From an uncultured Candidatus Saccharibacteria bacterium (GTDB lineage: Bacteria > Patescibacteriota > Minisyncoccia > Phycocordibacterales > CAYSCM01), in NCBI GenBank assembly GCA_964429815.1, contig CAYSCM010000001.1, positions 32,001-96,000 on the forward strand: 64,000 nt of DNA. The letters run 5' to 3'. Positions 47,246 to 64,000 of this stretch are shown here, in pieces; the stretch's first letter is position 1; each line of letters opens with the position of its first letter. The notes under the pieces were generated by a model. It was not told the origin of the DNA. It did not search any database and worked only from the letters and a program-made list of their open reading frames with translations. The position numbers and the translations under genes were made by a program.

Positions 47246-47277
47246 GACGCCCGCCACAAACGGGCGTCTATTTTTTT
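47246..47277. terminator. bidirectional terminator between convergent genes
   Basis: GACGCCCG ccacaaa CGGGCGTC followed by TATTTTTTT. Confidence 0.65.
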
Positions 47278-47810
47278 GGAAAAATCGCCATACGGCGCCA
47301 GTCCAGAAAGAATGCCGGGAGAGGAACAAAATAGTTTTTGAGAGCATCCTTCTCCGAACCGGCGGGGTCGTGATAGAAAAAACCTGCGATTTCCCCGCCC
47401 TCACCCTCTCGAACCCCCACTAAAAGTACCTGATGGAATTTACGTTGATCCCAGAGGCGTAGTTGTGTCGAAATTATAACAGGATTCCCTATCTTAATGG
47501 CATTGCGAATCTGTGTGATATCGCGCTCGGACATCTGCTCTTTTCGCTCACATCCAAAACCAAATCTTTGTATAAGCGAGACCGAATAGTCATGTATCCA
47601 CCCCGAATCGCCGTAGCCTCCTTCCCTCATACCCCGTGCAATGAGTTCATCGAGACTCGGCAATTTTGCACCAAAGTACGCAAGCGCCATGTATACACAG
47701 GTCATCCCGCAGGAAAAAATACGTGAGTCAGGATTTTTGACGTCACGATACTGGGAATAGTAGGGAACTTCGAGAATCGTATCCGTGAAGGTTATCTGTC
47801 GGGTCATCAT
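47268..47810 (-). CDS. peptidase C39-like (papain-fold) domain protein
   Basis: VPYYSQYRD...SCGMTCVYMALAYFG with a downstream His region, typical of the C39_2 family. Confidence 0.6.
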   Translation of the reverse strand: MMTRQITFTDTILEVPYYSQYRDVKNPDSRIFSCGMTCVYMALAYFGAKLPSLDELIARGMREGGYGDSGWIHDYSVSLIQRFGFGCERKEQMSERDITQIRNAIKIGNPVIISTQLRLWDQRKFHQVLLVGVREGEGGEIAGFFYHDPAGSEKDALKNYFVPLPAFFLDWRRMAIFPKK

Positions 47811-48282: not shown

Positions 48283-48310
48283 TTCCCGATACTACTTTAT
48301 TTTACTGAGG

Positions 48311-48392
48311 TGGGCGAGGGGAGAGTTGAACTCCCAATCCTTGCGGAATACGCTTCTGAGGCGTACGTGTATACCAATTCCACCACTCGCCC
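48311..48392 (-). tRNA. tRNA-Leu (anticodon CAG), class II with long variable arm
   Basis: Hand-folded. Acceptor GGGCGAG/CTCGCCC. Anticodon stem TACGC/GCGTA with loop CTCAGAA. Variable arm TCC-GCAA-GGA. T arm GGGAG-TTCAACT-CTCCC. No encoded CCA. Confidence 0.9.
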
Positions 48393-48544
48393 GTCTGTTC
48401 CATCCTACTCAAATATGAAAACGGGTCTAGCCGACATCAGACCGCGTGGGTCTCATTTAAAGGCGCCATCAATCCGATTTAAGCCTTCGACACACTGTTC
48501 TGTCAGCCGACTGGCGAGGGGCGGAAAAGCTGTACCGTCCTGTG

Positions 48545-48616
48545 TGCGAGTGGAAGGAATCGAACCTTCGACCTCTGTCTTATCAGGACAGCGTTCTACC
48601 ACTGAACTACACTCGC
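48545..48616 (-). tRNA. tRNA-Ile (anticodon GAU)
   Basis: Hand-folded. Acceptor GCGAGTG/CACTCGC. D arm GTTC/GAAC. Anticodon stem CTGTC/GACAG with loop CTGATAA. T arm GAAGG-TTCGATT-CCTTC. No encoded CCA. Confidence 0.9.
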
Positions 48617-48923
48617 AATGAGGTGGATACTAGCAAGAGAGCGCCTCCCTATCAACAGCTCCCCCTTCATGCGGGGTGCGTTTGGTCGGTACAATGATGG
48701 TGGTTCCAGTAGAAAGGAGAGAACCTTTGTGCGGTTGGTCACGACGTACACTCAAACGGGATCGCGGTCGTAGCCGAGAAATTCGGTCAAAGCCCATCCA
48801 GGAGGAGCTTTCCCTGCTCACCCCGAATGTCTCACGTGTCCTTCCCGAAGCCACAGTCGCTCCACCGGCGAGTCGCTCCGCGCGGCTCCCCTCACAGCAG
48901 CGACTCGCTGAGCTCTATGCCGC

Positions 48924-48973
48924 AAGGAGGTGATCCAGTCGCGTAAGAGCCCTACCAAGGCGCTTACGACTAC
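48924..48973 (-). rRNA. orphan 16S rRNA 3'-terminal segment (AGTCGTAA, hairpin, CTGGATCACCTCCTT)
   Basis: Minus-strand sequence GTAGTCGTAAGCGCCTTGGTAGGGCTCTTACGCGACTGGATCACCTCCTT. 15-nt identity to the universal 16S end, followed by the ITS and tRNA-Ile. Confidence 0.7.
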
Positions 48974-49028
48974 CGTTTTCGAACGTTCTTTCTTTCAAGC
49001 GCGCCGCGTTAGCGGCGCGCTTTCTATT

Positions 49029-49057
49029 CAAAAAAAGACCCGCTCTCAGAGCGGGTC
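49029..49057 (-). terminator. rho-independent terminator of the small-membrane-protein operon
   Basis: GACCCGCT ctgag AGCGGGTC followed by TTTTTTT on the minus strand. A second 11-bp GC hairpin lies at 48997-49022. Confidence 0.7.
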
Positions 49058-49069
49058 AGGTACGGGGGG

Positions 49070-49477
49070 TTATGCATCGTCGCGGTGACATAGCCGCAGG
49101 AGCGCACTAACGATGAGGACAGCTCCGAGGACGACCGGGGTGAACGCGGCGTTGAGTTCCCTATGGATGCCTAACCGGAGACCAATGAAGGTGACGACGA
49201 GGCCACCGAAGAACAGGATCGCGCTTTTCTCCACGTACGGGCTCCAGATTCGACAGAGGATGCCGCGCCATCCTCCCGTCATGAGAGCGGAAGCTACCAC
49301 CCCCAAGCTGTAGGAGGGAAAAGAATCCGTTTCCCGAACGAGGGCGTGGACGAAAAGCATGAGCCCGAGGAGAAAGACAAACGTGCCGAGTCCGATGATA
49401 AGCCGAGCCACGATGGACTCGCGAAGAACGCGAGGACGACTCCAATCGTGAAAAAGCTTGGTGGAGCGTTGAGACAT
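49070..49477 (-). CDS. small integral membrane protein (hypothetical), about 135 aa
   Basis: Starts at MSQRSTKL with SD AGAAGGAGGG 7 nt upstream. Three to four TM-length hydrophobic segments. Confidence 0.55.
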   Translation of the reverse strand: MSQRSTKLFHDWSRPRVLRESIVARLIIGLGTFVFLLGLMLFVHALVRETDSFPSYSLGVVASALMTGGWRGILCRIWSPYVEKSAILFFGGLVVTFIGLRLGIHRELNAAFTPVVLGAVLIVSALLRLCHRDDA

Positions 49478-49561
49478 GGATGGACCCTCCTTCTTTCGTC
49501 GTGATACCACTCTTCCTGAGCCGCCGCAACCTGTGGAAAACCGTTACGCAAGAAGGCCGCC

Positions 49562-49771
49562 CTACGGGCGGCCTTGCGGCTTTTTCTCGGCGCGACAGAT
49601 AAAGACGCACAGTATCATAAGCGCGATCGCGATGATGATAAAGAGCGTCCCCGCCGGCAGCGCATGAACAGGTTTTCCGCGTTGGATGATGCCGCCGATG
49701 AGCGCGGCAAAGCCGGCACCGGCAAGAACGAGCGCGAAGAAAGCCGTTGTGAGATTCGCTGCCTTTTTCAT
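49562..49771 (-). CDS. small membrane protein (hypothetical), 69 aa
   Basis: MKKAANLTTAFFALVLAGAGFAALIGG... with two TM-length segments. ATGA overlap with the upstream mini-ORF. Confidence 0.5.
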   Translation of the reverse strand: MKKAANLTTAFFALVLAGAGFAALIGGIIQRGKPVHALPAGTLFIIIAIALMILCVFICRAEKKPQGRP

Positions 49772-49893
49772 GGGAGCCTCACGAGCGGTCCGTGGAAGTA
49801 GAGAAACACGTCGAGCGCCAAACTGAAAAAGAACAGGCTTAGCAGGATACGTTTCTTCCCGCTTGGGCCCGAGAACGCCTTGATGGGATGCAT
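49768..49893 (-). CDS. mini-ORF, 41 aa hydrophobic peptide (hypothetical)
   Basis: Own translation: MHPIKAFSGPSGKKRILLSLFFFSLALDVFLYFHGPLVRLP. SD GGGAGGG lies 6 nt upstream. Below the ORF-track cutoff. Confidence 0.4.
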   Translation of the reverse strand: MHPIKAFSGPSGKKRILLSLFFFSLALDVFLYFHGPLVRLP

Positions 49894-49996
49894 GCTAGCC
49901 CTCCCTGGTACCTTGGCACATCCTAGCTAAAGAGGCATGCCGGCGCAATCTAAGAAGAGCGCCGCCGGTGGTGCCGGCGGCGTCGTGTCCCCACGA

Positions 49997-50251
49997 TCAA
50001 GGGAAGGTTCGGTCGATGAACGAGCCGAAGTAGCCGACGCCGAAGCCGAGTCCGAGGTACTGGAGCGGTCGGAGCGGTGCCTCGAGCATGTTGACGGCAG
50101 CGTAGGCGCCGAGCATCCAGGCTATACCTACCGTGAGCGCCCCGGCGGCCACGCCGGTCGCAACGTCACGGTACCAAGAGGCCTGAGCGTCCCACATGTG
50201 GTCGAGGCGCTCGAGTCCAGTGCGATAGTTCCGTAGGGTTCCGTCGGGCAT
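49997..50251 (-). CDS. small membrane protein (hypothetical), 84 aa
   Basis: SD AAGGAGGTT at 50255-50263. Hydrophobic core VATGVAAGALTVGIAWMLGAYAAV and a second segment LGLGFGVGYFGSF. Confidence 0.55.
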   Translation of the reverse strand: MPDGTLRNYRTGLERLDHMWDAQASWYRDVATGVAAGALTVGIAWMLGAYAAVNMLEAPLRPLQYLGLGFGVGYFGSFIDRTFP

Positions 50252-50322
50252 AGGAACCTCCTTTCCTTTCCCGTCCCTGTTCTACCGAAGTTTTGCGCTC
50301 TACACAATGGCTTCCTCCCCAT

Positions 50323-50357
50323 GCGCAAAAAAGCCCCTTATAAGGGGCTTTTTTGCG
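50323..50357. terminator. strong bidirectional hairpin with A/T runs immediately after the 16S trailer stem
   Basis: CGCAAAAAAGCCCC ttataa GGGGCTTTTTTGCG. Confidence 0.6.
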
Positions 50358-50359
50358 TT

Positions 50360-50388
50360 GGTACCAGAGTCTCTTTTGTTCCGTTCAA
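50360..50388 (-). promoter_or_regulatory. 3' arm of the pre-16S processing stem (RNase III-type)
   Basis: Complementary to 51987-52015: 8 bp, a 2x2 internal loop, then 19 bp. Confidence 0.7.
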
Positions 50389-50516
50389 TATACCAGTACG
50401 CATTTCTGGAAAGCGAGCAGACTTTAAAGACATACTGCTATGGTCTACTTCCGTACTCGATCGAGATACAGAATATCGACCGGATAAGTCTTACCTTCCG
50501 AAGAAGGAGACAGTTC

Positions 50517-51981
<1,465 letters not shown>

Positions 51982-51986
51982 ATTCG

Positions 51987-52015
51987 TTGAACGGAACAAA
52001 AGAGAGGCTGGTACC
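51987..52015 (-). promoter_or_regulatory. 5' arm of the pre-16S processing stem
   Basis: GGTACCAGCCTCTCTTTTGTTCCGTTCAA on the minus strand, pairing with 50360-50388. Preceded in the leader by the SD-like AGAAGGAGGT. Confidence 0.7.
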
Positions 52016-52230
52016 TCCTTCTTGATTCCTTTTACCCGTCCGAGCCGCAAAGCGGTTAGGATTAGGGTTTTTTGATCAGACTACACCGCCCTGGTTGGCG
52101 GCTAATCTAGTTGAACAGATTTTGTCTGCTCGCACATAACGTTCTTTGATTATCAATGATCACTACCTCATTGGCCGTTCGCCTCAAGCGGATTAGGCCG
52201 AAACAAAAACCTGCCCAAGGCAGTGCAGAC

Positions 52231-52258
52231 AGTATACGCAGAATTTGATGGGTGTCAA
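52231..52258 (-). promoter_or_regulatory. candidate 16S promoter
   Basis: Minus-strand TTGACA (52258-52253), 16-nt spacer, TATACT (52236-52231). About 250 nt upstream of the 16S 5' end. Confidence 0.5.
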
Positions 52259-52386
52259 ATGAAGGTCGCTCGCACACATCTTTTTGGAAACACGCATAAA
52301 ATAGGGCTTATTTTTGCTCCGCTCGCGCCGTCGCTCTGTGCGAGGTTTCCAAAAAGAGAATGCTCGCTCAAACAGGAAATGTAAAA

Positions 52387-52989
52387 TCAGATTGCGCCAC
52401 TCTGTGGAGGTTTTTTATTGAGATGTTGCCCAAAGAACGCCAGAGCTGTGATCGTTGTGTTGGCAAAAATCAAATAAATCGGATAAATCAGGTTAGCAAT
52501 ATCGAATTTTGTAGTCGAGACGGCAGCTAGAATTGCAGCGACGGCAATCATTGCCCACCCGAGAACGTTTTCTGAATAGGGCTCTCGATATGTCTTGGCT
52601 ATTGTCGGAATAGTCGAAATCAGGTCAGCCAGTACCGCTAGAATGAGCGCTACGAGAGGTTGTTTTGTAATTTGCCACAAACCTATAGCGATTATTGCTA
52701 GAGCAAAACAAGTATAATCAAGTGCCCCGTATTTTCTGTACCCATAACCAGACAAAGCAACAACAAGAATAAGCGCAGTGTTAAAAGTTGTTGTTATCAA
52801 GATTATGATGGACCACGATGCGCCGGCACTGAACTGAGCGGCTATGGCAATAATTTGTAGCGTGGTCCAAAGAACAAATGAAATTATATTTGGCCGAGTC
52901 GTACCCTTTATCATGCTTCTGACATAGGGGAAAACAGAGGCAATCTGGATTATTCCAGCAATAATTCCAACTACCGCATGCCAATCCAT
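52387..52989 (-). CDS. polytopic integral membrane protein (hypothetical; faint PQ-loop-like flavour)
   Basis: 200 aa from MDWHAVVGIIAGIIQIASVF, hydrophobic throughout. The track's N-terminal extension overlaps secF and is rejected. Confidence 0.5.
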   Translation of the reverse strand: MDWHAVVGIIAGIIQIASVFPYVRSMIKGTTRPNIISFVLWTTLQIIAIAAQFSAGASWSIIILITTTFNTALILVVALSGYGYRKYGALDYTCFALAIIAIGLWQITKQPLVALILAVLADLISTIPTIAKTYREPYSENVLGWAMIAVAAILAAVSTTKFDIANLIYPIYLIFANTTITALAFFGQHLNKKPPQSGAI

Positions 52990-52990
52990 C

Positions 52991-53893
52991 TTATTTCTTC
53001 TGCCAGCGCTCGATGGTGACGAGAAGTGGCGAGCCGAGGAAAATTGAGGAGTAGGTACCAGCGGCAATACCAATGAGAAGGGCAAGGGCGAAATTTTTGG
53101 TCGCCTCCGCGCCGAAAAAGTAAAGCGCGAGGAGCGAGAGGAGCACGGAGAGCGAGGTGTTGATCGAGCGATTAAAGGTCTGCGCAATACTCTTCCCAAC
53201 CGTAGTCCCAAACTCTTCCCGAATTCCCTGCTGGTGATTCACGCGGAGATTTTCACGCACGCGGTCGAAGACGACGATGGTATCGTGGACCGAAAAACCG
53301 AGCACCACGAGAAGCGCAGTGACAAAGAGCGTATCCACCTCAAACCCGGCATAGTGTCCGAGTATCGCAAATACCCCCGTTGGAATGATGACGTTATGGA
53401 TAAGCCCCACAATGGCGACCAATCCATACTTCCACGATGAAACAGGCTGCGACACCTTGCGAAACGCGAACGCGATGAAGAGGAGGATGGCCACGATGAC
53501 GAGCGCGACCGCGATCGTCGACTTGGTGCGAAGTTCCGAGCCGATCGTGGGGCCGATAGAGTTGTGCTGCTCACTCGTGATCTTCGCCGTCCCCCCGAGA
53601 GAAAGGGCGTTGAGAACTGCCACACGCTCTGGCTCTTGGAGATCTCGCGAACGAAGGATGTAACCATCGACTCCTGTGGGGCGCAGCGAGTAGGTTCCGA
53701 GCGTGAGAGTATTTAATTTACCCTCAGCCGCGGTTTTATCGGGCACTTGTCCCGCGTAGTGGACCTCTGTGAGAGCCCCGCCGGTAAAATCAATGCCGAG
53801 CTGAAGTCCAAAGAAAACAATCGCAAGGAGAGAGAGCCCCACCAGGACGGCGGAGAGGGCGTAGAAGAGTTTTCGATAAGTGATGACGAACAT
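52991..53893 (-). CDS. secF: protein translocase subunit SecF
   Basis: LGIDFTGGALTEV and the C-terminal RND-like TM bundle. Confidence 0.85.
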   Translation of the reverse strand: MFVITYRKLFYALSAVLVGLSLLAIVFFGLQLGIDFTGGALTEVHYAGQVPDKTAAEGKLNTLTLGTYSLRPTGVDGYILRSRDLQEPERVAVLNALSLGGTAKITSEQHNSIGPTIGSELRTKSTIAVALVIVAILLFIAFAFRKVSQPVSSWKYGLVAIVGLIHNVIIPTGVFAILGHYAGFEVDTLFVTALLVVLGFSVHDTIVVFDRVRENLRVNHQQGIREEFGTTVGKSIAQTFNRSINTSLSVLLSLLALYFFGAEATKNFALALLIGIAAGTYSSIFLGSPLLVTIERWQKK

Positions 53894-53895
53894 AG

Positions 53896-55281
53896 CTAGA
53901 ATTTGAACCCGTTACCAAAGAGTGCTCGCACTGCGCCCTTGTTTTCCCGGTGAAGAAGGCCGAGCGCATAAAGGAAGGTACGGCTTATAGAGACCGCGGT
54001 AAACATCGAGACGAGGACCCCGACCCCGAAGACAAGCGCAAAACCTTTAATAACCGCTGTGCCGCCAAGCCAGTAGAGGATAAAGGCGGTAATGATGGAA
54101 GAAATATTTGAGTCGCGGATTGAAGGCCACGCACGCGCAAAGCCTTCACGGATGGCTTCACCGAGCTTGTGTCCACGATTGAGCTCCTCTTTCATACGCT
54201 CGAATATGAGAATGTTCGCGTCAACCGCCATACCGACAGAGAGAATGAATCCTGCGATGCCGGCCGCAGTGAGCGTCACCGGGATGATCTTAAAGAGCGC
54301 GAGCATCATGACGACGTACATTCCGAGCGCCAGAATAGAGATGAGGCCGGGGAGGCGGTACCACAGGAGCATGAAGAGGGCGACGGCAAGGAAGCCGAGT
54401 TCGCCCGCATAGACACTCTTAGCTGCTGCCGCTTCTCCGAGCGAGGCACCGATCGTTTGAGTCCCGATAAGGGAAATGGGTACAGGGAGCGCGCCGAAAT
54501 TGAGGCTCTGCACAAGATCGCGCGCCTCGGTCGGCGTAAAGTTCCCGGAAATCGTCGCTTTACCACCAGTGATGGCCTCGCGGATGACTGGGGTCGATAT
54601 CGGTACGCCGTCGAGGAAAATGCCCAGTACGCCGCCTACATGCTCGCGCGTAATCTTTTCAAAAAGCGCCGAACCTTCCGCATTGAATTCGATCGACACG
54701 ATCGGTTGATTAATGTTCGCGCCACCCTGCCCTGTCCCGAAATTGAGCGTTGCGCGGGAGAAGAGGCGCCCGGTGAGGCCGGTGTCCGTGAAGGCCGAGT
54801 TGACGTCGAAAGTTTTGGCCTCTGAGGAGCCCGGCTCCGGTATCTTCGCGTCCGGCTTCATGAGCTTGAACTCAAGGAGAGGCGTCTTGCCGATGGCGAA
54901 AATCGCGGCGTTTACGTCCGTGACGCCAGGAAGCTCGACGATGAGGCGGTTCTCGGAGACGCCGGAGAGCGCGCTTGCGCGCTCCACCTGCACGAGAGGC
55001 TCCGAGACACCGAAAGCATTTACACGGCTCTCAATGACGGTGCGCAGCACTTCCATCGATGGTCCAATGTCGCCGGAAGCAACCTTTTTGGTGTCGGCTT
55101 TGTAGACGAGATGCGACCCGCCCGAGAGGTCGAGGCCGAGCTTAAAGGCGAAGCGCCCCGGGGAAAGCTGGGAGTGATAGACGAAGTAGCCGACCGCAAT
55201 CCCTGCGATGAGTATTAAAATGGCACTGACGCGCTGCCATACCATGGGGGTGAGCTTAGCAGAAAACCCTACCGTATGCAC
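53896..55281 (-). CDS. secD: protein translocase subunit SecD
   Basis: LGLDLSGGSHLVYKAD and the C-terminal TM bundle. The start may instead be at 55245. Confidence 0.85.
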   Translation of the reverse strand: MHTVGFSAKLTPMVWQRVSAILILIAGIAVGYFVYHSQLSPGRFAFKLGLDLSGGSHLVYKADTKKVASGDIGPSMEVLRTVIESRVNAFGVSEPLVQVERASALSGVSENRLIVELPGVTDVNAAIFAIGKTPLLEFKLMKPDAKIPEPGSSEAKTFDVNSAFTDTGLTGRLFSRATLNFGTGQGGANINQPIVSIEFNAEGSALFEKITREHVGGVLGIFLDGVPISTPVIREAITGGKATISGNFTPTEARDLVQSLNFGALPVPISLIGTQTIGASLGEAAAAKSVYAGELGFLAVALFMLLWYRLPGLISILALGMYVVMMLALFKIIPVTLTAAGIAGFILSVGMAVDANILIFERMKEELNRGHKLGEAIREGFARAWPSIRDSNISSIITAFILYWLGGTAVIKGFALVFGVGVLVSMFTAVSISRTFLYALGLLHRENKGAVRALFGNGFKF

Positions 55282-55286
55282 TACTG

Positions 55287-56231
55287 CTACAGGAGCTCCT
55301 GGGTTTGTGTGAGACCTTCGATAAGCGTATGTCGAGGCACGTATCCGAGAATCTTTTTTGCCTTAGATATATCGGCAAAGCTGTGTGGGATATCTCCAGG
55401 GCGAGAGGGCGCAAAATGAGGCTCGATAGAGGTTCCAAGCACGGTGTTGATGGTCGCCACAAGTTCGCGAAGGTTCGTCCGCTCCAGCCCCCCCACATTG
55501 AAAACCTCGCCCGCGATACCCTCTTTCTCTGCCGCCAAGATATTTGCAGCCACGGCGTCGGAGACGTAGGTGAACGAGCGGGAAGCTGACCCATCGCCAT
55601 AAATAGTCGGCCGTTCCCCGGCCTTCATAAGTTTAATGAATTTGGGAATTACCGCGGAATACTCTGAATTCGGATCCTGCCGCGGCCCATAGATATTAAA
55701 ATAGCGTAGGGAGACAGTTTCGAGCCCGAAAAGCGAATAAAATTGTTTTGCGTACACCTCCCCGAGATATTTCTGCGCAGCATAGGGAGAAAGAGGATTG
55801 GGAGGCAAATCTTCGACCTGCGGTAGCACGGGCGTGTCGCCATAGTAGGAACTTGATGCGGCATACACCACTCGCTGGACGCCCGTGTCGCGGGCCGCGA
55901 GAAGTACCTGGAGCGTTCCCGTCGCATTCGCCTCATGCGAGGTAAGCGGGTCCCGTACGCTCTTGGGAACGGACGGTACCGCTGCCTGGTGGAACACAAC
56001 ATTAGCGCCCGAGAAAACGCGGGCGAGAGCGCCGAGGTCGAGAATGCTCGCCGGTATGAATTCGATACGGTCGGCAACACCTTTAAGATTTTCTGCACTA
56101 CCTGTTGATACGTCATCGACCACTCTGACGGTATACCCGCGCAACAGAAGCTCTTCAACGAGATGCGAACCAATGAATCCCGCACCTCCTGTTACCACAG
56201 CTCTTTTCATGGTAGGTGTAACGACCTTCAT
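55287..56231 (-). CDS. NAD-dependent epimerase/dehydratase (UDP-hexose 4-epimerase-like)
   Basis: VVTGGAGFIGSHLVEELL and YAAQK motifs. Confidence 0.8.
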   Translation of the reverse strand: MKVVTPTMKRAVVTGGAGFIGSHLVEELLLRGYTVRVVDDVSTGSAENLKGVADRIEFIPASILDLGALARVFSGANVVFHQAAVPSVPKSVRDPLTSHEANATGTLQVLLAARDTGVQRVVYAASSSYYGDTPVLPQVEDLPPNPLSPYAAQKYLGEVYAKQFYSLFGLETVSLRYFNIYGPRQDPNSEYSAVIPKFIKLMKAGERPTIYGDGSASRSFTYVSDAVAANILAAEKEGIAGEVFNVGGLERTNLRELVATINTVLGTSIEPHFAPSRPGDIPHSFADISKAKKILGYVPRHTLIEGLTQTQELL

Positions 56232-56236
56232 GCGGC

Positions 56237-57586
56237 CTACGTTCCACTTCTCGAGAGAAGTGCGCGTACGGTCTTAAGGGCAATGTGGAAATCAAGCACG
56301 AGTGAGCGGTGTTTTACGTAGTACAAGTCGTAGGAGAGTTTCCGCGCTGTTTTTTCAACGTCAACGACACCCCGGGGGGCATCGTAGTCATTGATCTGTG
56401 CCCAGCCGGAGAGACCTGGCTTCACCAGGTGTCGGGCGTTGTAGAGAGGTAATTCTTTTTCGTAGGCCCTAACCAACGTGGGGATCTCCGGACGAGGCCC
56501 GATGAGAGAGAGCTCACCCCGTAAGACATTCAAGAGCTGGGGAAACTCGTCGATACGTGATTTGCGCAGTACTTTTCCCGCCTCCGTGATACGGTTTTTC
56601 TTGTGAAGCTCAGGATCGCCGTGATCATCAAAGAGCCAAGAGCGGAATTTCATGAGCTCAAAAGAGCGGTTATTCTGTCCGACCCTCTCCTGAGATATAA
56701 AAAGCGGCCCCGAGGAAGTTACTCTCAGTGCGATCGCGCCTCCAAAGCAAAATGGGAGCGCGATGACACCCGCAATGAGTGCCACCACGATGTCCATCGC
56801 ACGCTTGAGCGCGTCATACGCACTATGCCGATCGCGAATTTCTTCAGTGAGAAGCTTGGTTTCGTCGATGAGTGTAAGCGGCACACGCTGAAAGAGGTCC
56901 TCAAAGAGCGTCGCAGTATCGATAAAACGCGTACCCTCGAACACTAACGCGGAAAAATCGCGCGCGTACGGGGAAAGTTTCTCGTGGTGCGCATCGAATA
57001 CAATGACCCGAGGCCTTTCTTGGCGCGCACGCGCGAGAATTTTTTTTGCATCGAAGGCGCTCGCGGAGATTTTGTCTTTAAGGATGATGCCGTGTCGTGG
57101 ATTATGTGTGAGCTCATGCGCTATCGCATCTATCTCCTTTCCCTCCCCAATGAGATACGCTGTCACAGGTACCCGAGGTCGAAGCTTCGGGACAATGAGA
57201 AGTCGCCAGAAAAGAATACTCCCCACAGATACACCGAGGTAGATGAGAAGTGTCGTCTTCGGAGCAATACCAAACCAAGGAGCAAAGAAAAAGAACAAGG
57301 CGGCAATGATGACATTCGCGACTTGGGCCTGGACAATCGCTAGCGGCATGCGCTCAACCACCGCGAGAGTGCGACGCTCGTAGAGCTCAAGAATGAAAAA
57401 AACCCCTATCCAAACGAGAAAGAGGAACGAAAACGGCACAAGATGTTGCAGGAAAACGGCTCCGGTCGGAAACGAAAAGGTCCTCAAATAGAGGGATAGC
57501 CATAGGGACGCGACAAAACAAAAAACGTCTCCGAGGAGGAGCACGAAGGTGCCGGTGTGCCGAAGCCGCATGGTCACACCATACAA
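56237..57586 (-). CDS. polyprenyl-phosphate sugar-phosphate transferase (WbaP/exopolysaccharide priming transferase family)
   Basis: N-terminal TM helices and the C-terminal bacterial sugar transferase domain (KFRSW...DEFPQLLNVLRGELSLIGPRP). Confidence 0.8.
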   Translation of the reverse strand: MYGVTMRLRHTGTFVLLLGDVFCFVASLWLSLYLRTFSFPTGAVFLQHLVPFSFLFLVWIGVFFILELYERRTLAVVERMPLAIVQAQVANVIIAALFFFFAPWFGIAPKTTLLIYLGVSVGSILFWRLLIVPKLRPRVPVTAYLIGEGKEIDAIAHELTHNPRHGIILKDKISASAFDAKKILARARQERPRVIVFDAHHEKLSPYARDFSALVFEGTRFIDTATLFEDLFQRVPLTLIDETKLLTEEIRDRHSAYDALKRAMDIVVALIAGVIALPFCFGGAIALRVTSSGPLFISQERVGQNNRSFELMKFRSWLFDDHGDPELHKKNRITEAGKVLRKSRIDEFPQLLNVLRGELSLIGPRPEIPTLVRAYEKELPLYNARHLVKPGLSGWAQINDYDAPRGVVDVEKTARKLSYDLYYVKHRSLVLDFHIALKTVRALLSRSGT

Positions 57587-57649
57587 CGATTTAGCTCTTA
57601 CACAAGTTACCTATGTGGAGCGCTACCTCGTGGTAGCCTTTTATAAACT

Positions 57650-58762
57650 ATGAAGGTTCTCTATGTCATCACAAAAGGTAATTTTGGAGGCGCCCAGCGC
57701 TACGTGTTTGAGTTGGCGGTTGAAGCAAAACGTCGAGGGCATGATGTGACTGTCGTTTACGGGGAGCCCGGCGTATTGATCAAGAAGCTAGCAGGGGCCT
57801 ACATACGGACAATTTCCCTTTCTACTCTTCAGAGAAACATCAATCCCCTCAAAGAGATCGGGAGTTTCATTCGCCTTGTGTCCCTCATACATTCATTACA
57901 TCCTGATGTGGTCCATCTCAATAGCGCCAAAGCCGGAGGACTCGGCGCCCTCGCCGCTCGCGTGATGGCAGTACCACGAATTGTTTTCACTGTTCATGGC
58001 TGGCCCTTTAACGAAGAACGGCTATGGGTTGACAACATGGTCCGGGCTTTGTTGCAGTGGCTTACGGTGATGCTAACGCATGTAAGCATTGTCGTTGCAG
58101 AGAGCGACAAAAAGCAGGTCGCTCACTGGCCCTTTGTGCAGAAGAAAATAGTGTGCATTCATAATGGCGTTGGCACCATAGATTTTCTTGAAAGGAGCAC
58201 CTCGCGCGCAAACCTTTTATCTACGCACGTCGAGAAATTCTGGATCGGAGCACATACCGAAAACAAAAATAAGGGCATCGACTTTCTTTTGAAAGCCTAT
58301 GCGCGCGCCCGGGAAAAACTTTCTTCCGCGATCATCGTACTTTTCGGCACAGGGCCGGAAGAGTCCAATCTTAAACGCCTCACACGGGAGTTAGGGATCG
58401 AGGATAAGGTTTTTTTTCTTGGATTTTTAGATAATGCACGAGCGTACCTTAAAGCTTTCGATGTTTACACCATTCCCTCCCGTAAAGAAGGATTGCCGTA
58501 TTCACTCCTCGAGGCCGGCGCGGCGGGACTCCCGGTCGTTGCGAGCCGGGTGGGAGGCATCCCCGAAGCAGTAACCGACACGCAAAGTGGTTTTCTCACA
58601 GCCCCTGGCGATGTAGTACTTCTTTCAGCCAGGCTCGCAGAGCTCATAGAAAGCGAACCGCTGCGCGAAAAATTTGGACAGGCCTTGCGAGCGAAAGTTG
58701 AAAAAGAATTCTCTCTTTCTCACGTGTTTGAAAAAACATTTGCTCTCTACTCACACCCCTAG
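57650..58762 (+). CDS. GT4-family glycosyltransferase
   Basis: KEGLPYSLLEAGAAGLPVVASRVGG. Confidence 0.8.
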   Translation: MKVLYVITKGNFGGAQRYVFELAVEAKRRGHDVTVVYGEPGVLIKKLAGAYIRTISLSTLQRNINPLKEIGSFIRLVSLIHSLHPDVVHLNSAKAGGLGALAARVMAVPRIVFTVHGWPFNEERLWVDNMVRALLQWLTVMLTHVSIVVAESDKKQVAHWPFVQKKIVCIHNGVGTIDFLERSTSRANLLSTHVEKFWIGAHTENKNKGIDFLLKAYARAREKLSSAIIVLFGTGPEESNLKRLTRELGIEDKVFFLGFLDNARAYLKAFDVYTIPSRKEGLPYSLLEAGAAGLPVVASRVGGIPEAVTDTQSGFLTAPGDVVLLSARLAELIESEPLREKFGQALRAKVEKEFSLSHVFEKTFALYSHP

Positions 58763-59902
58763 AAACTCTTTCCCGATATCGTCGCGGTGGAAGGCCCTGC
58801 TGTAGGCTCGCTGTCCCATCAAAATGCCGAGCCCCATATACTCGGTGAGGAGGTGTGAGCCGCCGTAGCTCATGAAGGGAATGGTGATGCCGGTCACCGG
58901 CAAGAGCCCGATGTTGAAACCGATGTGAATGATGAGGTGACTCAAGAAGTACACCGCAAGGCCAGCTGCAAATAAGGTCTCAAAATTACTCTCCCCGTGC
59001 ATAGCGGTCGCGATGATACGCCACAAAATAATCCCGTAGAGGATAAAGAGCAGAAGAACGCCAACAAATCCCCACTCTTCGGCGAACGCTGCGAAGATAA
59101 AGTCCGTTTGATACTCAGGGAGAAACTGCAGCCGGCTCTGGGTTCCGTAACCAACCCCCTTCCCCACAAGCCGTCCCGAGCCGACCGCGATCGTGGACTG
59201 GTAGGCATTGTAGCCGGCGCCGCGAATGTCGGTGAGGGGGTGAATGAACGTGAGGACGCGCTGCTTCTGGTATGGCCGGAGTGCAAAGAGCCACATGCCC
59301 GCCGCTATCACGGCCGCGACCAGAAAGACCGTGAGAAGATGACGAAGCGATATCCCCGCAACGAGGACCATCCCGAGCCATATGGTGCCGATGATGATGG
59401 CCGAACCGAGATCAGGCTGGAGAAAGATGAGGACGAAAGGAACGAGCGTATACGCGCCAGAGAGGAGGATGTGCCGGATGTGTGCTATTTCCACATGCCG
59501 ACGCGAAAAATACTTGGCGAGGACTATGATGAGCACGAGCTTCATCGGGTCGGCGGGTTGCAGCGCGAATGAACCGAAGTTGAAGCGAGCCTGAGCGCCC
59601 TTAGCGATGGAGCCGAACACGAAAATGAGGAAGAGCAGCGCGATGGCCGCGACGTAGAGCGACGCGATAACGGAGGTGCGCCGCAGGAAGTGATAGTCGA
59701 AGAGTGCGAAAATGAAAAAGCTCGCAAGCGCGAGCGCTATCCAGACAAGCTGTTTGTTGAAGAAGTAATTCTCCGCCCCGAAGGAATTCATCGTAAAGAG
59801 GCCTGCCGCGAGGATGGGGAGCGTCGAGAGGAGGAGCACCCAGTCGATACTCTGCCGTATGTTCGTGAAAAAACGGCGTCCTCGGGCGATGGTAGCGGCC
59901 AT
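58751..59902 (-). CDS. rodA: FtsW/RodA/SpoVE-family peptidoglycan glycosyltransferase
   Basis: QSTIAVGSGRLVGKG...LPEYQTDFIFAAFAEEWGF. Start MAATIARG at 59902, just after the upstream stop. Confidence 0.8.
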   Translation of the reverse strand: MAATIARGRRFFTNIRQSIDWVLLLSTLPILAAGLFTMNSFGAENYFFNKQLVWIALALASFFIFALFDYHFLRRTSVIASLYVAAIALLFLIFVFGSIAKGAQARFNFGSFALQPADPMKLVLIIVLAKYFSRRHVEIAHIRHILLSGAYTLVPFVLIFLQPDLGSAIIIGTIWLGMVLVAGISLRHLLTVFLVAAVIAAGMWLFALRPYQKQRVLTFIHPLTDIRGAGYNAYQSTIAVGSGRLVGKGVGYGTQSRLQFLPEYQTDFIFAAFAEEWGFVGVLLLFILYGIILWRIIATAMHGESNFETLFAAGLAVYFLSHLIIHIGFNIGLLPVTGITIPFMSYGGSHLLTEYMGLGILMGQRAYSRAFHRDDIGKEFLGV

Positions 59903-59904
59903 GA

Positions 59905-60666
59905 TCAGAGAGGCCTGACCCGGACCTTCACATCGACCGTAGTCGAGGTCGCTGTAAACGGACGAGGCCACGTGAAGGTGAGCGTGTTACTCCCCTGCGC
60001 AGGGAGCTCTCTCACGACCGTGCGGGACGCCGCCATTGCATTGCCGTTTTCGTTGAAGATAACCGCGGTCGCCTCGATGCTTTGTATCGGCCGAAGTGAG
60101 GTGTTGCTGATGGTCACCGTGAGCTTGGGAGAGGCGCCCGCCTCGGAAAGTCCTCGCTCCCCTATCAAAATACTTTTAGCAGGATCGTCGGCTAGGGTGA
60201 AATTTTGTACGGGCGAAAATTCGAAGAAGGTGCGCGAGGGGGTTCGATTCCCCGTCGTTATGCCCGGTTCAACGATGACGTTAACCTGGCCTGGCGAGAG
60301 GAATGTGGTCCCCTTACGCTCCACGACGAGGATGTTTCCCTCATCGTAGAGCTTGAAATCGTAGGGAAAGGAGAGAACAGCACCGCTCTCATTGGGATTG
60401 TTGACGTAGGCGATCGCCGTCCACACCCCCGGCGTTACCTCGACGGAGCGTGCCCACATGACCGTGGCTGGGGATGTTTTGAAGGGGCAGATTTTCTTGC
60501 AAGCGCCACCGCAGTCAATTCCCTCTTCCCTGCCATCTTGTCTGCCGTCGGAGCAGGTCGGCGCCGTGGAGAGGAGTGAGTACGCGATACCCCCAAAAAG
60601 AAGCAGAAGAACGAGTAGTATGCCGCTTACGTAGAGGCCCTTGCGGCGATTAGCCCAGGCTGACAT
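59905..60666 (-). CDS. membrane-anchored extracytoplasmic protein (hypothetical)
   Basis: Start MSAWANRRKG at 60666, one N-terminal TM helix and a Cys-rich segment CSDGRQDGREEGIDCGGACKKIC. The track start at 60699 lies inside the terminator. Confidence 0.55.
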   Translation of the reverse strand: MSAWANRRKGLYVSGILLVLLLLFGGIAYSLLSTAPTCSDGRQDGREEGIDCGGACKKICPFKTSPATVMWARSVEVTPGVWTAIAYVNNPNESGAVLSFPYDFKLYDEGNILVVERKGTTFLSPGQVNVIVEPGITTGNRTPSRTFFEFSPVQNFTLADDPAKSILIGERGLSEAGASPKLTVTISNTSLRPIQSIEATAVIFNENGNAMAASRTVVRELPAQGSNTLTFTWPRPFTATSTTVDVKVRVRPL

Positions 60667-60684
60667 GGGAAGAATAGTAACACG

Positions 60685-60715
60685 AAAAAAACACCTCACT
60701 TTGAGGTGTTTTTTT
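60685..60715. terminator. terminator of the 23S-5S unit (bidirectional hairpin)
   Basis: AAAAAAACACCTCA ctt TGAGGTGTTTTTTT. Confidence 0.7.
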
Positions 60716-60730
60716 GACTTTTAAATCCCC

Positions 60731-60840
60731 TAACCTGGCGGCTACCTACTCTCCCCTTGCGAGTACCTAGCGGCGTAGCGGGCTGAAAGCGAGGGTTCGC
60801 AGCTTTCAGAGCCGCAGGCCTGTTCGAGGCCGAGGCGGGG
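60731..60840 (-). pseudogene. 5S rRNA-like element lacking the 5' ~25 nt and carrying an extra internal hairpin
   Basis: 37 nt identical to the 5S 3' end (60731-60767 equals 60914-60950). It then diverges but stays alignable (GCCCGCTACGCCGCTAGGTAC versus GCCCGCTAGCGCCGATGGTAC). Inserted hairpin CTGAAAGC...GCTTTCAG. Confidence 0.5.
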
Positions 60841-60875
60841 TCACGCATAAAATGCAGCAGCATTTTATGCGTGAC
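60840..60875. repeat. perfect 16-bp palindromic hairpin
   Basis: GTCACGCATAAAATGC agca GCATTTTATGCGTGAC. Confidence 0.85.
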
Positions 60876-60914
60876 TAACGGCATGTCCCGTCCAAAATGT
60901 TAGTTAGAAACTAT

Positions 60915-61022
60915 AACCTGGCGGCTACCTACTCTCCCCTTGCGAGTACCATCGGCGCTAGCGGGCTTAACGGCCGTGTTCGGAATGAGAACGGGTGTTT
61001 CCCCGCCGCCAAACCACCAGAT
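60915..61022 (-). rRNA. rrf: 5S rRNA
   Basis: Minus strand: CTGGTGGTTTGGCGGCGGGGAAACACCCGTTCTCATTCCGAACACGGCCGTTAAGCCCGCTAGCGCCGATGGTACTCGCAAGGGGAGAGTAGGTAGCCGCCAGGTT. Helix I closes with G-U pairs. Flanked by the 12-bp inverted repeat 60889-60900 / 61057-61068. Confidence 0.85.
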
Positions 61023-61073
61023 TATAAATTCCAACTATTTTCGATCTCTAAGTGTGACATTTTGGACGGATTC

Positions 61074-61119
61074 TCGGAATGAGAACGGGTGTTTCCCCGC
61101 CGCCAAACCACCAGATTAT
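61074..61119 (-). repeat. orphan duplicate of the 5S 5' half
   Basis: 46-nt perfect direct repeat of 60980-61025. Confidence 0.85.
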
Positions 61120-62388
61120 GAGATTCAAAAAGTCGGGTTCGGCAGCCGACTTCCTCGATAGGATGAGGAAGATCGGCTGCCGCCCGCGCAAGGACGTGAG
61201 CAGTTGAGCGGGGCGCTCCTCCCGAGCGGCCACCATTCCCATCGCAGTGCTAAAGCGCTTCTTAGAATGGTCGCGGAGGGCGACACCATTCCAGCTCCGC
61301 AAAGGGTCCGTGCACGCTTCTTTCCCACGTCCGAAAAGCGAAAACAAAGAACTTAACGTTTCGAAGCGTCCGAAATCCGGGTAGATTTCGGCCACCAGTA
61401 AAACGTCAAGCGGGTTAAAAAAGTAACGAAAATCATATTCAATCAATTGCGACATGCAGATTCCCTGACAGGAAACTCGACGTATTAGTACGCCTCGGCT
61501 CAATCCGTTGCCGGACTTCCACCTGGCGCCTATCAACGTAATAGTCTCTTACGGGTCTCAACGAGTCCTCATCTCAGAGTTGGCTTCTTGCTTAGATGCT
61601 TTCAGCAATTATCCATGCCGAACTTAGCTACGCAGCGTGCTTCTGGCGAAACAGCTGCCACACCAGAGGTTCGTCCATTCCGGTCCTCTCGTACTAGGAA
61701 CAGATCTCTTCAAGACTCAACGCCCATGGTAGATAGGAGACCAACCTGTCTCACGACGGTTTGAACCCAGCTCGCGTATCTTTTTAATTGGCGAACAGCC
61801 AAACCCTTGGGACCTTCTCCAGCCCCAGGATAAGATGAGCCGACATCGAGGTGCCGAACGGTACCGTCGCTATGGACGCTTGGGTACCACTAGCCTGTTA
61901 TCCCCAGAGTAGCTTTTGTCCGATAATCTTCCCCCGCATCTAATGCGTAAGGTCGGTTCACTTTGCTCCGCTTTCGCGCCTGCTCGGCATGTACGCCTTA
62001 CAGTCAAGCTCCCTTTTGCCAATACACTATCGGCACGGTTTCCATTCGCGCCTAGGGAACCTTAATAGACTCCTCCGTTACTCTTTAGGAGGATAGCGCC
62101 CCACTAAAACTGCCTGCCATGCAGTGTCCCTCATCGTTTTTGCCGACGAGGTTAGAGACTATATGTTGTCAGGATGGTATTTCACTGGCGAGTCCACACT
62201 CCCCGGAAGGAATGCTTCAACCTCTCCCATCTATGCTGCGCAGAAAAAACATAGCCCCACTACAAAGCTACAGTAAAGCTTCTGGGGTCTTTTCGTCTAA
62301 CCACGGGTAACCGGCATCTTCACCGGTATTGTATTTTCACCAGGCTGATCCTCGAGACAGTCCCCCAGTCGTTACACCATTCGTGCAC

Positions 62389-62428
<40 letters not shown>

Positions 62429-63158
62429 GATTATAGTTATCGCCGACATTCACCAGGGCTTGCATAGCCCAGCACTACACATAAATGCATAGCACCATCC
62501 ATGCTTGACCTTCTGGCATTGGTCAGGTGTCACCCCCTATACATCCTCTTACGAGTTCGCAGGGAGCTGTGTTTTTGGTAAACAGTCGCCAGGAGTACTT
62601 TCGCTGCGGCCCCGCCGACTTGCGTCGAAAGGGCAGGCCTTATTGCTAACGTACGGCCGCTTTTTTGCCGAGTTCCTTGAGGATCAATCACCTGTTCGCC
62701 TTGGTCTACTCGACCTGACCACCTGTGTCGGATTACGGTACGGTCTCGTGTTTGTTATGCTTAGAGATTTTTCTTGGAAGCGTGCTCCCATGCGTAAATC
62801 CTCCGTAGAGGATCTCCCCGTGATGCTCGGACTTGCGACTCCCGGATTTTCCTAGAAGTCATCCTCACACCCCAGACACCAATCCAATAAGATGCGCATA
62901 GTACAACCCTTCGTCCTCTCATCGCACAAACACAAGGTCATGGAATATTAACCATGCATCCATTAGGTACGGCTTTCGCCATCCCCTTAGGACCGACTAA
63001 CCCTTGGCTGATCTTCATCGCCAAGGAAACCTTGGTCTTTCGGCGTGGGGGAGTCTCACCCCCATTGTGGTTACTCGTGCCGGCATTCTCACTTCGCAAC
63101 GCTCCACGCTCAGTTACCCTCGCGCTTCATGGCGGATGCGAACGCTCTCCTACCGCGT

Positions 63159-63336
63159 TATGTGTTTCGTTGAGGAGCCGAGGATGGCTCCTCGGCTATT
63201 AGTCTTCTTCGTCGTTATAGATGAACGGTATAGGTCCAAACATTGACCAGACCGCGACCGCAATGACGTAGATTGCAAACCAGTCGTCTTCCAACATGGC
63301 TTCACCTCTTTTGTACTTTCCTCAACGAAACACACA
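63159..63336 (-). other. intervening sequence (IVS) replacing 23S helix 45
   Basis: The E. coli hairpin GCAGCGACGCTTATGCGTTGTTG is replaced by about 175 nt. The insert is closed by a 16+2 bp stem (63159-63176 / 63319-63336) between CCGAAACTGAGGG and GGTAGGAGAGCGTTC. Confidence 0.7.
63199..63297 (-). CDS. candidate 32-codon mini-ORF inside the 23S IVS
   Basis: Own translation: MLEDDWFAIYVIAVAVWSMFGPIPFIYNDEED. SD GAGGTG lies 5 nt upstream. Stop TAA is followed by the 9-bp hairpin 63176-63197. Confidence 0.3.
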   Translation of the reverse strand: MLEDDWFAIYVIAVAVWSMFGPIPFIYNDEED

Positions 63337-63417
63337 ACACCCTCAGTTTCGGTACAACGCTTAAGCCCCGATTATTTCCGGCGCAAGATCTCTCGATGAG
63401 TGAGCTGTTACGCTTTC

Positions 63418-63449
<32 letters not shown>

Positions 63450-64000
63450 TCATTGTCAGAGAAATTTCACCTCCTTAAGATGCACTGAGCGTTGATTTTG
63501 GGACCTTAACTTGAGATCTAGGCTCTTCCCTTTTTGACCACCGGAGCTTAGCCCCCGGAGTCTAACTGCGTGGTAGTGGAGAACGGTATTTGGAGTTTGA
63601 TAGGATTGACGAGCTTTCGCCCTATTCAATCCTTCCAGTGCTCTACCCCCGTTCTATAAACCACACGCCAGCCCAAAAGCTGTTTCGGAGAGAACCAGCT
63701 ATTACCAGGTTCGATAAGCTTTTCACTCCAACCCACAAGTCATCCGAATGCGTTGAACGACATACCGGTTCGGGCCTCCCCACTCCTTTCGGAGTGGTTC
63801 ACCCTGCTCATGGGTAGCTCACCTGGCTTCGGGTCGTATACGCGCTACTTAGTCGCGCTATTCACACTCGCTTTCGCTACGGCTTCGTCCGACAAAGGAC
63901 TTAGCCTCGCAACGCGCATACACTCGCCGGCTCATTCTTCAATAGGCACGCGGTCACCCGGAAGGATAGAAGCACCCAAGACTAGCCGATGGGTCGTTGC

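Follow-up and report, generated by a model that had tools for sequence, protein, structure and literature searches.

We conclude that the stretch of DNA analysed here (64,000 nt, called the window) carries an intervening sequence (IVS) in helix 45 of its 23S rRNA gene and that a 32-codon open reading frame inside this IVS, the mini-ORF, is probably not expressed as a functional protein in its host. With a probability of roughly 0.55, the element is a CPR helix-45 IVS of known kind and the mini-ORF is lineage-specific cargo within it. The best-supported view of the IVS is that its stem is the part under selection. The mini-ORF itself is more gene-like than chance and real as a sequence feature. 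It is without support from conservation, and we regard it as an unusually gene-like orphan that is not yet evidence of a new gene class.

The host is a Paceibacteria-type CPR bacterium. Matches of the neighbouring RodA gene were confined to Patescibacteria/Paceibacterota (Parcubacteria) MAGs, with a best identity of 65%, and the nearest neighbour protein, P0004, is 53% identical to the 264-aa gene next to 5S. The gene order 23S–5S–264-aa gene–RodA is kept throughout the clade. The 16S gene is unlinked from the 23S–5S pair and lies 9 kb downstream of 5S. The 23S gene occupies the last 2.5 kb of the window, and its 5' part is missing, cut by the window end. Its alignment to the Rfam LSU model breaks at about model position 1210, in the helix-45 hairpin, which is the insertion point. 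In helix-45 IVSs, the tip of this helix (E. coli position about 1170–1180) is replaced by extra sequence; here the tip measures 186 nt, vs 22–30 nt in relatives that have no IVS. The alignment break and the comparison with Paceibacteria loci bear out a claim made earlier from the letters of the DNA (the sequence-only reading), namely that the element hosting the ORF is a helix-45 IVS of 23S. The features of the locus are the following.

61464..64000, minus strand: 23S rRNA gene (Rfam LSU_rRNA_bacteria, 2011 bits, model positions 552-2925).
63155..63340, minus strand: helix-45 IVS of 186 nt, with flanks ...ACCGAAACTGAGG and GGTAGGAGAGCGTT...
63319..63340, minus strand: 5' arm of the basal stem, GTGTTGTGTGTTTCGTTGAGGA, a presumed RNase III substrate.
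63303..63311, minus strand: SD-like purine stretch AAAGAGGTG, 5 nt upstream of the ATG.
63199..63297, minus strand: mini-ORF of 32 codons with its stop, encoding MLEDDWFAIYVIAVAVWSMFGPIPFIYNDEED; an orphan, coding-like.
63176..63197, minus strand: 9-bp hairpin AGCCGAGGA-gcca-TCCTCGGCT, directly adjoining the 3' arm of the stem.
63155..63176, minus strand: 3' arm of the basal stem, TCCTCAACGAAACACATAACGC.

Read along the rRNA-sense strand, these elements follow one another as 5' arm, leader AAGTACAAAAGAGGTGAAGCC, ATG and 32 codons, TAA-TAG, hairpin and 3' arm. The ATG is at 63297, 5 nt after a GAGGTG at 63308–63303; the stop codon TAA is followed in frame by TAG, and the 9-bp hairpin starts one base after the TAA. 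The SD-like stretch, the ATG, the 32 codons, the TAA, the 9-bp hairpin and the rRNA-sense strand had all been described in the sequence-only reading, and every one of these sequence details was correct on re-reading. The mini-ORF, with its tandem stop, fills the cargo slot neatly. Folding of the 186-nt IVS gave –82 kcal/mol (z = –7.2 vs shuffles), with a basal stem of 22 bp in both the MFE and the centroid folds and two further hairpins predicted in the interior. The element has the properties by which helix-45 IVSs are recognized: insertion at the tip, long complementary ends and sporadic occurrence among relatives.

The IVS belongs to a family with a common frame, or chassis. A scan of metagenomes for CPR-type 23S flanks lying 171–201 nt apart returned 42 loci, and the window IVS was aligned with 12 other CPR IVSs, a subset of these metagenome loci plus the genome locus L014 (13 sequences; alignment A1). 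The stem motif common to the members reads G[CT]TTGTGnnnTTCATTGAGGA ... TCCTCAATGAA..., and the basal stem has 22 pairs, with 274 of 274 cells paired (100%) and compensatory double changes in 12 of the 22 pairs across the 13 sequences. None of 500 shuffles reached the A1 values for paired cells, compensatory pairs or covariation score, and slid controls of the alignment paired at 38–50%. A short hairpin directly 5' of the 3' arm, read from predicted folds, is present in 10 of the 13 members (the window and nine of the 12 others), and the GAGGA motif that closes the 5' arm likewise belongs to the chassis. The equivalent hairpin is found whatever the interior holds, so the hairpin after the stop codon of the mini-ORF is a chassis element and not an ORF terminator. 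The earlier claim that it is linked to the ORF is not supported. More generally, a hairpin 3' of a stop codon may belong to the surrounding RNA element and not to the ORF. The stretch from SD to ATG, AAAAGAGGTGAAGCCAT, is itself a diverged direct repeat of the hairpin region AATAGCCGAGGAGCCAT, with 12 of 17 positions identical.

What the chassis encloses varies. Many interiors of the family are sense-strand tRNA-like cloverleafs; their D and T loops are canonical, their anticodon loop is often aberrant, and some of them encode a CCA. Others are unrelated sequence. Among the 13 chassis members, the mini-ORF is present in the window only, and none of the 42 loci from the metagenome scan has an interior like that of the window. 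ARAGORN detected no tRNA-like element in the window's IVS, and Rfam at E <= 10 returned only noise for it (best E = 2.2). The interior is swappable, non-conserved cargo, and the chassis consists of a covarying stem of ~22 bp and a short 3' hairpin. In the literature searched, we found no description of a covarying CPR IVS chassis with a cargo slot that often holds tRNA-like cloverleafs, and this chassis with tRNA-like cargo may be of more interest than the mini-ORF itself.

The distribution of such insertions was followed along the conserved gene order. Of the 17 Paceibacteria RodA loci that include this part of 23S, 12 have a native helix-45 tip of 22–30 nt, four carry unrelated IVSs of 94–147 nt, and one (L036) carries a separate 441-nt helix-45 IVS with a 120-aa S23p ORF (PF05635, 23S_rRNA_IVP, E 6e-28). 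The closest relative of the host, represented by the P0004 carriers on contigs of 161–402 kb, has a native 28-nt helix-45 tip and no IVS. The 23S flanks of this IVS-less relative are 92.4% identical to those of the window, whereas those of the chassis relatives are only about 80% identical, a patchy distribution of the kind typical for IVSs. A 22-mer from the 23S flank, AAGCGTTGTACCGAAACTGAGG, had no matches in the genome contig collection, which does not contain the 23S of this species.

By analogy with Salmonella and Coxiella (PMC4990558), the IVS would be transcribed within pre-23S and its long stem would be cut, presumably by RNase III. The 23S rRNA would be left in two pieces, and the excised IVS RNA would probably be degraded. 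The insertion site, the covarying stem, the architecture of the family, the missing anti-SD, the orphan status and the coding-like statistics are shown by the data, whereas for the window's IVS we infer that RNase III cuts it, that the 23S is fragmented and that the mini-ORF is not translated. The gene-like look of the mini-ORF would be due either to its blocks of GAA/GAC and GUC repeats or to a coding fragment that was captured recently or is decaying.

This gene-like look was quantified with a codon score, for which frame-specific codon tables were derived from 43 long ORFs of the window and a log-likelihood ratio was computed between the in-frame model and the better out-of-frame model. The mini-ORF scored +12.8 (0.43 per codon), which exceeds the mean for 30-codon pieces of real genes (0.27 ± 0.13 per codon) and about equals that for TM-like pieces of real genes (0.39). 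The 294 other window ORFs of 28–45 codons averaged –0.16 ± 0.19, and none of them reached the mini-ORF; nor did any of 1598 windows of 23S, and among ORFs of 30 or more codons that arose in shuffles the fraction reaching it was 0.04%. The codon and period-3 statistics of the mini-ORF are like those of host genes, with a score dominated by GAA/GAC/GTC repeats. By frame-1 per-codon contributions, seven GAA/GAC codons in two GA-rich end blocks supply +8.5 of the ~12.8, and three GTC codons, partly in a GCGGTC hexamer repeat, supply +3.8; low-complexity period-3 repeats thus carry most of the codon signal. With the hexamer repeat collapsed, the score was still 0.385 per codon.

Chance levels were obtained from dinucleotide shuffles of the 142-nt IVS interior. 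A sense ATG ORF of at least 32 codons arose in 4.8% of the shuffles, such an ORF together with a 4-mer SD-like motif in 1.1%, and such an ORF with an equally hydrophobic 19-residue window in 0.005% (5e-5). The hydrophobic core has a Kyte-Doolittle value of 1.94 over 19 residues, which was matched by one of the 294 other small window ORFs (0.3%). Because 0.3% of these ORFs are as hydrophobic and none scores as high in codon usage, the mini-ORF is not a typical chance ORF. It was also called as a gene by the pipeline behind the protein collection, which did not call the longer overlapping ORFs. AlphaFold2 predicts one helix for the peptide, spanning residues 2–20 (pLDDT 79.6), followed by a proline-rich coil through GPIPFIY, and the "TM-length core" of the sequence-only reading is accordingly only approximate. 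The peptide has no basic residue, and acidic clusters flank its core on both sides, an arrangement that is atypical for membrane insertion under the positive-inside rule.

The usability of the start codon depends in part on the 3' end of the host 16S rRNA.

50519..50532, minus strand: 16S rRNA 3' tail GGAUUAAUUCCAAU, without a CCUCC anti-SD core (Rfam SSU model positions 1520-1533).

When this tail is aligned to the consensus GGAUCACCUCCUUU, the CCUCC core is gone, and the 16S tail likewise lacks CCUCC in eight related Paceibacteria (for example GGAUUAUUUCAAUU). The anti-SD is retained in roughly half of Parcubacteria and other CPR groups. A subgroup of Parcubacteria is reported to lack the anti-SD motif and presumably forms no SD helices (Tsurumaki et al. 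2022, PMC9297842). In the window, GGAGG or AGGAG occurs upstream of only 2–4 of the 43 long ORFs, close to the intragenic background, and the leaders of window genes pair with a canonical 16S tail no better than background. The GAGGTG had been taken as a good match to the anti-SD. As a sequence the match is real, with a leader duplex of –11.7 kcal/mol with the canonical tail, but with the host's own tail, which has no CCUCC, the duplex reaches –4.3 kcal/mol and uses a different stretch of the leader. Given a host tail without CCUCC and SD motifs near background, the SD-like element cannot act canonically. An SD match is not evidence of translation in Parcubacteria lineages that lack the anti-SD. 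A CTCCTT 12 nt beyond the annotated 16S end was considered as a displaced anti-SD and rejected, since it is the 5' arm of a TTCG-loop hairpin; relatives have a TTCG-loop hairpin at the same place beyond 16S, without the CTCCTT motif.

The start region is also structured. The region from –20 to +20 around the mini-ORF start has an MFE of –8.3 kcal/mol, vs –5.2 ± 2.5 for real ATG genes, and 88% of real ATG starts have less structure. The AUG is part of a local hairpin and is ~35% unpaired in the ensemble; the leader is A-rich and ~63% unpaired. The AAGCC before the ATG gives a context score above that of 84% of real starts, a level reached by 6.4% of random ATGs. Overall, there is no SD pairing to the host 16S, and structure hides part of the AUG; the host's genes, however, rarely show an SD themselves, and their start contexts are like that of the mini-ORF. 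The coding-like codon score, the rare hydrophobic core, the gene call, the AAGCC start context and the neat fit into the cargo slot are observations that run against non-expression.

Homologues were sought at the protein and DNA levels. In a collection of 15 billion proteins, the mini-ORF peptide found only itself, as a singleton 90% cluster (NCBI) on two contigs, the longest of 501,704 bp. A phmmer search against 1.84 billion cluster representatives returned only the self match and one spurious repeat protein; with a 32-residue query, phmmer detects relatives above roughly 60% identity only, and relatives above 50% are hidden inside the same representative. Pfam and NCBIfam held no family match for the peptide, even at E = 10. 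Searches of phages and plasmids with blastn and tblastn gave no match to the peptide or its DNA, and two back-translated peptide patterns had no match in viral contigs. None of the seven longer ORFs overlapping the mini-ORF was present in the protein collection, and an overlapping 61-aa ORF, used as a handle for homologous IVS DNA, had no match. No paralogue of the peptide or of the interior was found elsewhere in the window or in 127 fetched loci. A kinship with small ORFs near the 16S gene had been suggested; these ORFs have no sequence similarity to the mini-ORF and no paralogue occurs in the window, so we reject it. As to conservation of the frame, no homologous interior was present among the sequences searched, in which the sampling of the lineage is thin. 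This thin sampling, together with the insensitivity of a 32-residue query, makes the absence of homologues weak evidence.

We consider the mini-ORF most likely not to be a functional expressed gene because its SD-like element has no anti-SD partner in the host, its AUG lies in a local hairpin, no homologue was found and the closest relative has no IVS. The competing view, in which the IVS has as its cargo a genuine micro-protein gene that is translated from an SD-independent start in a host without anti-SD, appears unlikely to us. The excised RNA of ~150–180 nt would then serve as a small mRNA, shielded from exonucleases by its 3' hairpin; initiation would proceed via the A-rich, largely unpaired leader, and the product would be a 32-residue hydrophobic helical peptide with acidic ends, in or on the membrane. 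Such a gene would explain a coding-like codon usage and a hydrophobic core beyond the reach of other small ORFs and of shuffles, and would be in keeping with the compact layout between ATG and tandem stop, a start context similar to that of the host's real genes, the openness of the leader, the call by an independent pipeline and the confidence of the predicted helix. Protein-coding cargo is, moreover, known at the same site in the clade (S23p, in L036). It has to contend, however, with the lack of a homologue at the protein or DNA level and the absence of the IVS from the closest relative, with an SD that cannot pair with the host 16S and an AUG held in a start window more structured than most, with a codon score resting largely on GAA/GAC/GTC repeats, and with a peptide whose acidic residues on both sides of the core and lack of basic residues are atypical for membrane insertion. 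Transcription at rRNA levels within pre-23S is also hard to square with a hydrophobic product, and the Coxiella precedent is negative: the IVS ORF (S23p) is not made in vivo in Coxiella, where the IVS RNA is rapidly degraded, and in E. coli, expressed from there, this RNA decays with a half-life of about 4 min (PMC4990558). If the mini-ORF were translated, no coding cargo other than S23p would have preceded it in an IVS, and its family otherwise carries tRNA-like elements or unrelated non-coding sequence in the cargo slot; the rRNA precursor would double as mRNA, and protein would be expressed from an excised rRNA spacer. The micro-protein would join a very small list of IVS-encoded products. 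To our knowledge, S23p is the only such product known, and it has never been shown to be expressed.

That the mini-ORF is a fossil of horizontal transfer seems quite unlikely. In that case, the IVS or its cargo would have come from an SD-using lineage, in which it was a translated mini-gene or the 5' end of a membrane-protein gene, and would persist as a silent, undecayed passenger in a host devoid of anti-SD; as to present function, this overlaps with the main view. A near-canonical SD, AAGAGGTGA (–11.7 kcal/mol with the canonical tail), in a genome with SD motifs near background would be expected of such a passenger, as would coding-like statistics that persist without detectable conservation. 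The chassis is patchy over lineages with ~80% identical 23S flanks and absent in the 92% relative, and IVSs have been viewed as spreading horizontally (PMC11270868). Yet neither the protein collections nor the 42 metagenomic IVSs of similar length yielded a donor-type copy, the SD-like stretch is also explicable as a diverged copy of the chassis hairpin, and GAGGA is a chassis motif. We give still less credence, and consider it improbable, that the interior acts as RNA, as a structured aid to IVS excision or 50S assembly in which the mini-ORF is incidental. The two further hairpins predicted in the interior, the structured tRNA-like cargo of sister IVSs in the same slot and an IVS that folds far better than shuffles (z = –7.2) are compatible with this role, but the z-score comes mostly from the basal stem and the 3' hairpin. 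The interior, furthermore, has no Rfam family match and no tRNA-like element by ARAGORN, no homologue was found for analysis of interior covariation, and the period-3 codon signal is not explained by RNA structure. We therefore retain the reading of the mini-ORF as unexpressed, lineage-specific cargo of a CPR helix-45 IVS.

The mini-ORF is reminiscent of type I toxins (Fst/Ldr, Hok, TisB) and small membrane proteins, which share with it a length of ~30 residues, a hydrophobic helical core and encoding in a highly structured RNA with pairing 5' and 3' ends. The acidic C-terminus of the peptide presumably also resembles that of Fst. The mini-ORF differs from these toxins in having no Pfam or NCBIfam match and no basic residues and in lying inside an rRNA gene. 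A consensus promoter scan placed no plus-strand promoter-like site for an antisense RNA over the IVS, and an assignment to the type I toxins was rejected for want of a family match and of a plus-strand promoter-like site reading into the IVS.

With the IVSs that encode S23p (PF05635; Leptospira and Coxiella, and also the relative L036), the window has in common that the loop of a helix-45 IVS contains an ORF on the sense strand. The mini-ORF is, however, 32 aa long instead of about 120, its product is predicted as a hydrophobic helix and not a four-helix bundle, and it has no Pfam match and no homologue of any kind. The sequence-only reading had described it as unrelated to S23p, and the present data agree: the peptide of 32 aa, with a single predicted helix, matches neither Pfam nor NCBIfam, whereas the L036 ORF, as a control, matches PF05635 (6e-28). 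The closest parallels for the element as a whole are the helix-45 IVSs excised by RNase III in Salmonella, Campylobacter, Leptospira and Coxiella, which resemble it in insertion at the tip, a long inverted-repeat stem extending the helix, sporadic occurrence among close relatives and the 100–200 nt size class (PMC4990558, PMC11270868). It differs from them in its CPR host and in a chassis that is specific to the CPR, has an additional 3' hairpin and takes exchangeable cargo; cleavage of this IVS and fragmentation of its 23S are presumed.

Within the CPR, short non-intron insertions at classical IVS sites of 23S have been read as RNase III-type IVSs (PMC11270868). The 23IS2/23IS4 insertions of that survey (Tsurumaki et al. 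2024, PMC11270868) are, like the window's, shorter than 200 bp, non-intron and located at classical IVS sites in CPR 23S. They were described without ORFs, whereas the window insert has an ORF of 32 codons, a length below usual ORF thresholds, and tRNA is not mentioned in the survey (0 occurrences). The IVS of the window is one more case of a short helix-45 IVS, an element whose frequent occurrence in the 23S genes of CPR was known before.

Some CPR 23S genes from metagenomes have helix-45 IVSs with the basal-stem chassis seen in the window, and the cargo of these IVSs is a tRNA-like cloverleaf on the sense strand. The compared loci are:

tRNA-like cargo in chassis-type helix-45 IVSs
L084, 1765-1967, tRNA-like cloverleaf; also L109, L115 and L119
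L090/L107, tRNA-like cloverleaf
L094, 1657-1866, tRNA-like cloverleaf
L097, 11387-11598, tRNA-like cloverleaf
L101, 9367-9587, tRNA-like cloverleaf
L105, tRNA-like cloverleaf
L121, 3770-3970, tRNA-like cloverleaf

The types assigned by ARAGORN include Trp-CCA, "Asp-ATC" and "Phe-AAA"; several further calls have anticodon loops of 6 nt. The D and T loops of these cargos are canonical, and some encode CCA. Such elements might serve, inside an rRNA gene, as RNase P/Z processing signals or as tRNA mimics. A survey of CPR insertions nowhere mentions tRNA (PMC11270868), and we found no description of such cargo in CPR helix-45 IVSs in the literature searched.

CPR 23S genes also hold helix-45 IVSs of a second class, unrelated to the first: here a GC-rich basal stem surrounds arms made of short units repeated in tandem (AAAGTCC/TTAAAGT, for example, or CAAAT/CCAAAT, on one arm with the complements on the opposite arm). 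These IVSs form very long imperfect hairpins and contain no ORFs:

Repeat-built helix-45 IVSs
L020 and L049, helix-45 region
L082, L087, L096, L102, L104, L117, L118 and others

Insertions also recur at two other sites in the 23S genes of relatives (L007-L081 and L125-127), at query positions 1582/1583 and 2245/2246 along the window's 23S, corresponding to approximately 62419/62418 and 61756/61755 in the window. At 2245/2246 the 23S gene of nearly all related Paceibacteria is interrupted by 300-900 nt of extra sequence; fewer have an insertion at 1582/1583. These probably represent group I introns or homing-endonuclease inserts of the sort described for CPR. Both sites are empty in the window's 23S. 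Its closest relative, L125, has inserts at both (219 and 420 nt), yet lacks a helix-45 IVS.

The order of the rRNA genes is unusual (window 48309-64000, minus strand): protein genes spanning about 9 kb separate 23S-5S from the 16S, beyond which come tRNA-Ile and tRNA-Leu. In the 9-kb stretch lie a 264-aa gene, RodA, a glycosyltransferase (encoded on the other strand), a sugar transferase, an epimerase, SecD, SecF and a 200-aa gene; the order 23S-5S-264aa-RodA is kept across many Paceibacteria loci. The 1.9-kb spacer between the 16S 3′ end and tRNA-Ile contains:

49070-50251 (-), four same-strand ORFs of 84, 41, 69 and 146 aa

Membrane-like hydrophobic stretches occur in at least three of the four. 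On codon frame the ORFs score 0.19-0.34 per codon, positive values such as real genes give. This spacer is presumably the 16S-region cassette that the sequence-only reading saw echoed in the mini-ORF of the IVS. The spacer ORFs share no sequence similarity with the IVS peptide. Just downstream of tRNA-Leu lies a gene for a Peptidase_C39_2-like protein (47268-47810, minus strand; E 5e-10), adjoined by a 154-aa ORF. Processing of small secreted peptides is a common role of C39 peptidases.

The 3′ tail of the 16S (GGAUUAAUUCCAAU, window 50519-50532) lacks the CCUCC anti-SD, as do the 16S genes of 8 related Paceibacteria, and the SD motif is almost absent at 43 gene starts across the window. This absence bears on every SD-based ORF call in the window, and it has a precedent in a Parcubacteria subgroup already known to be without the anti-SD (PMC9297842).
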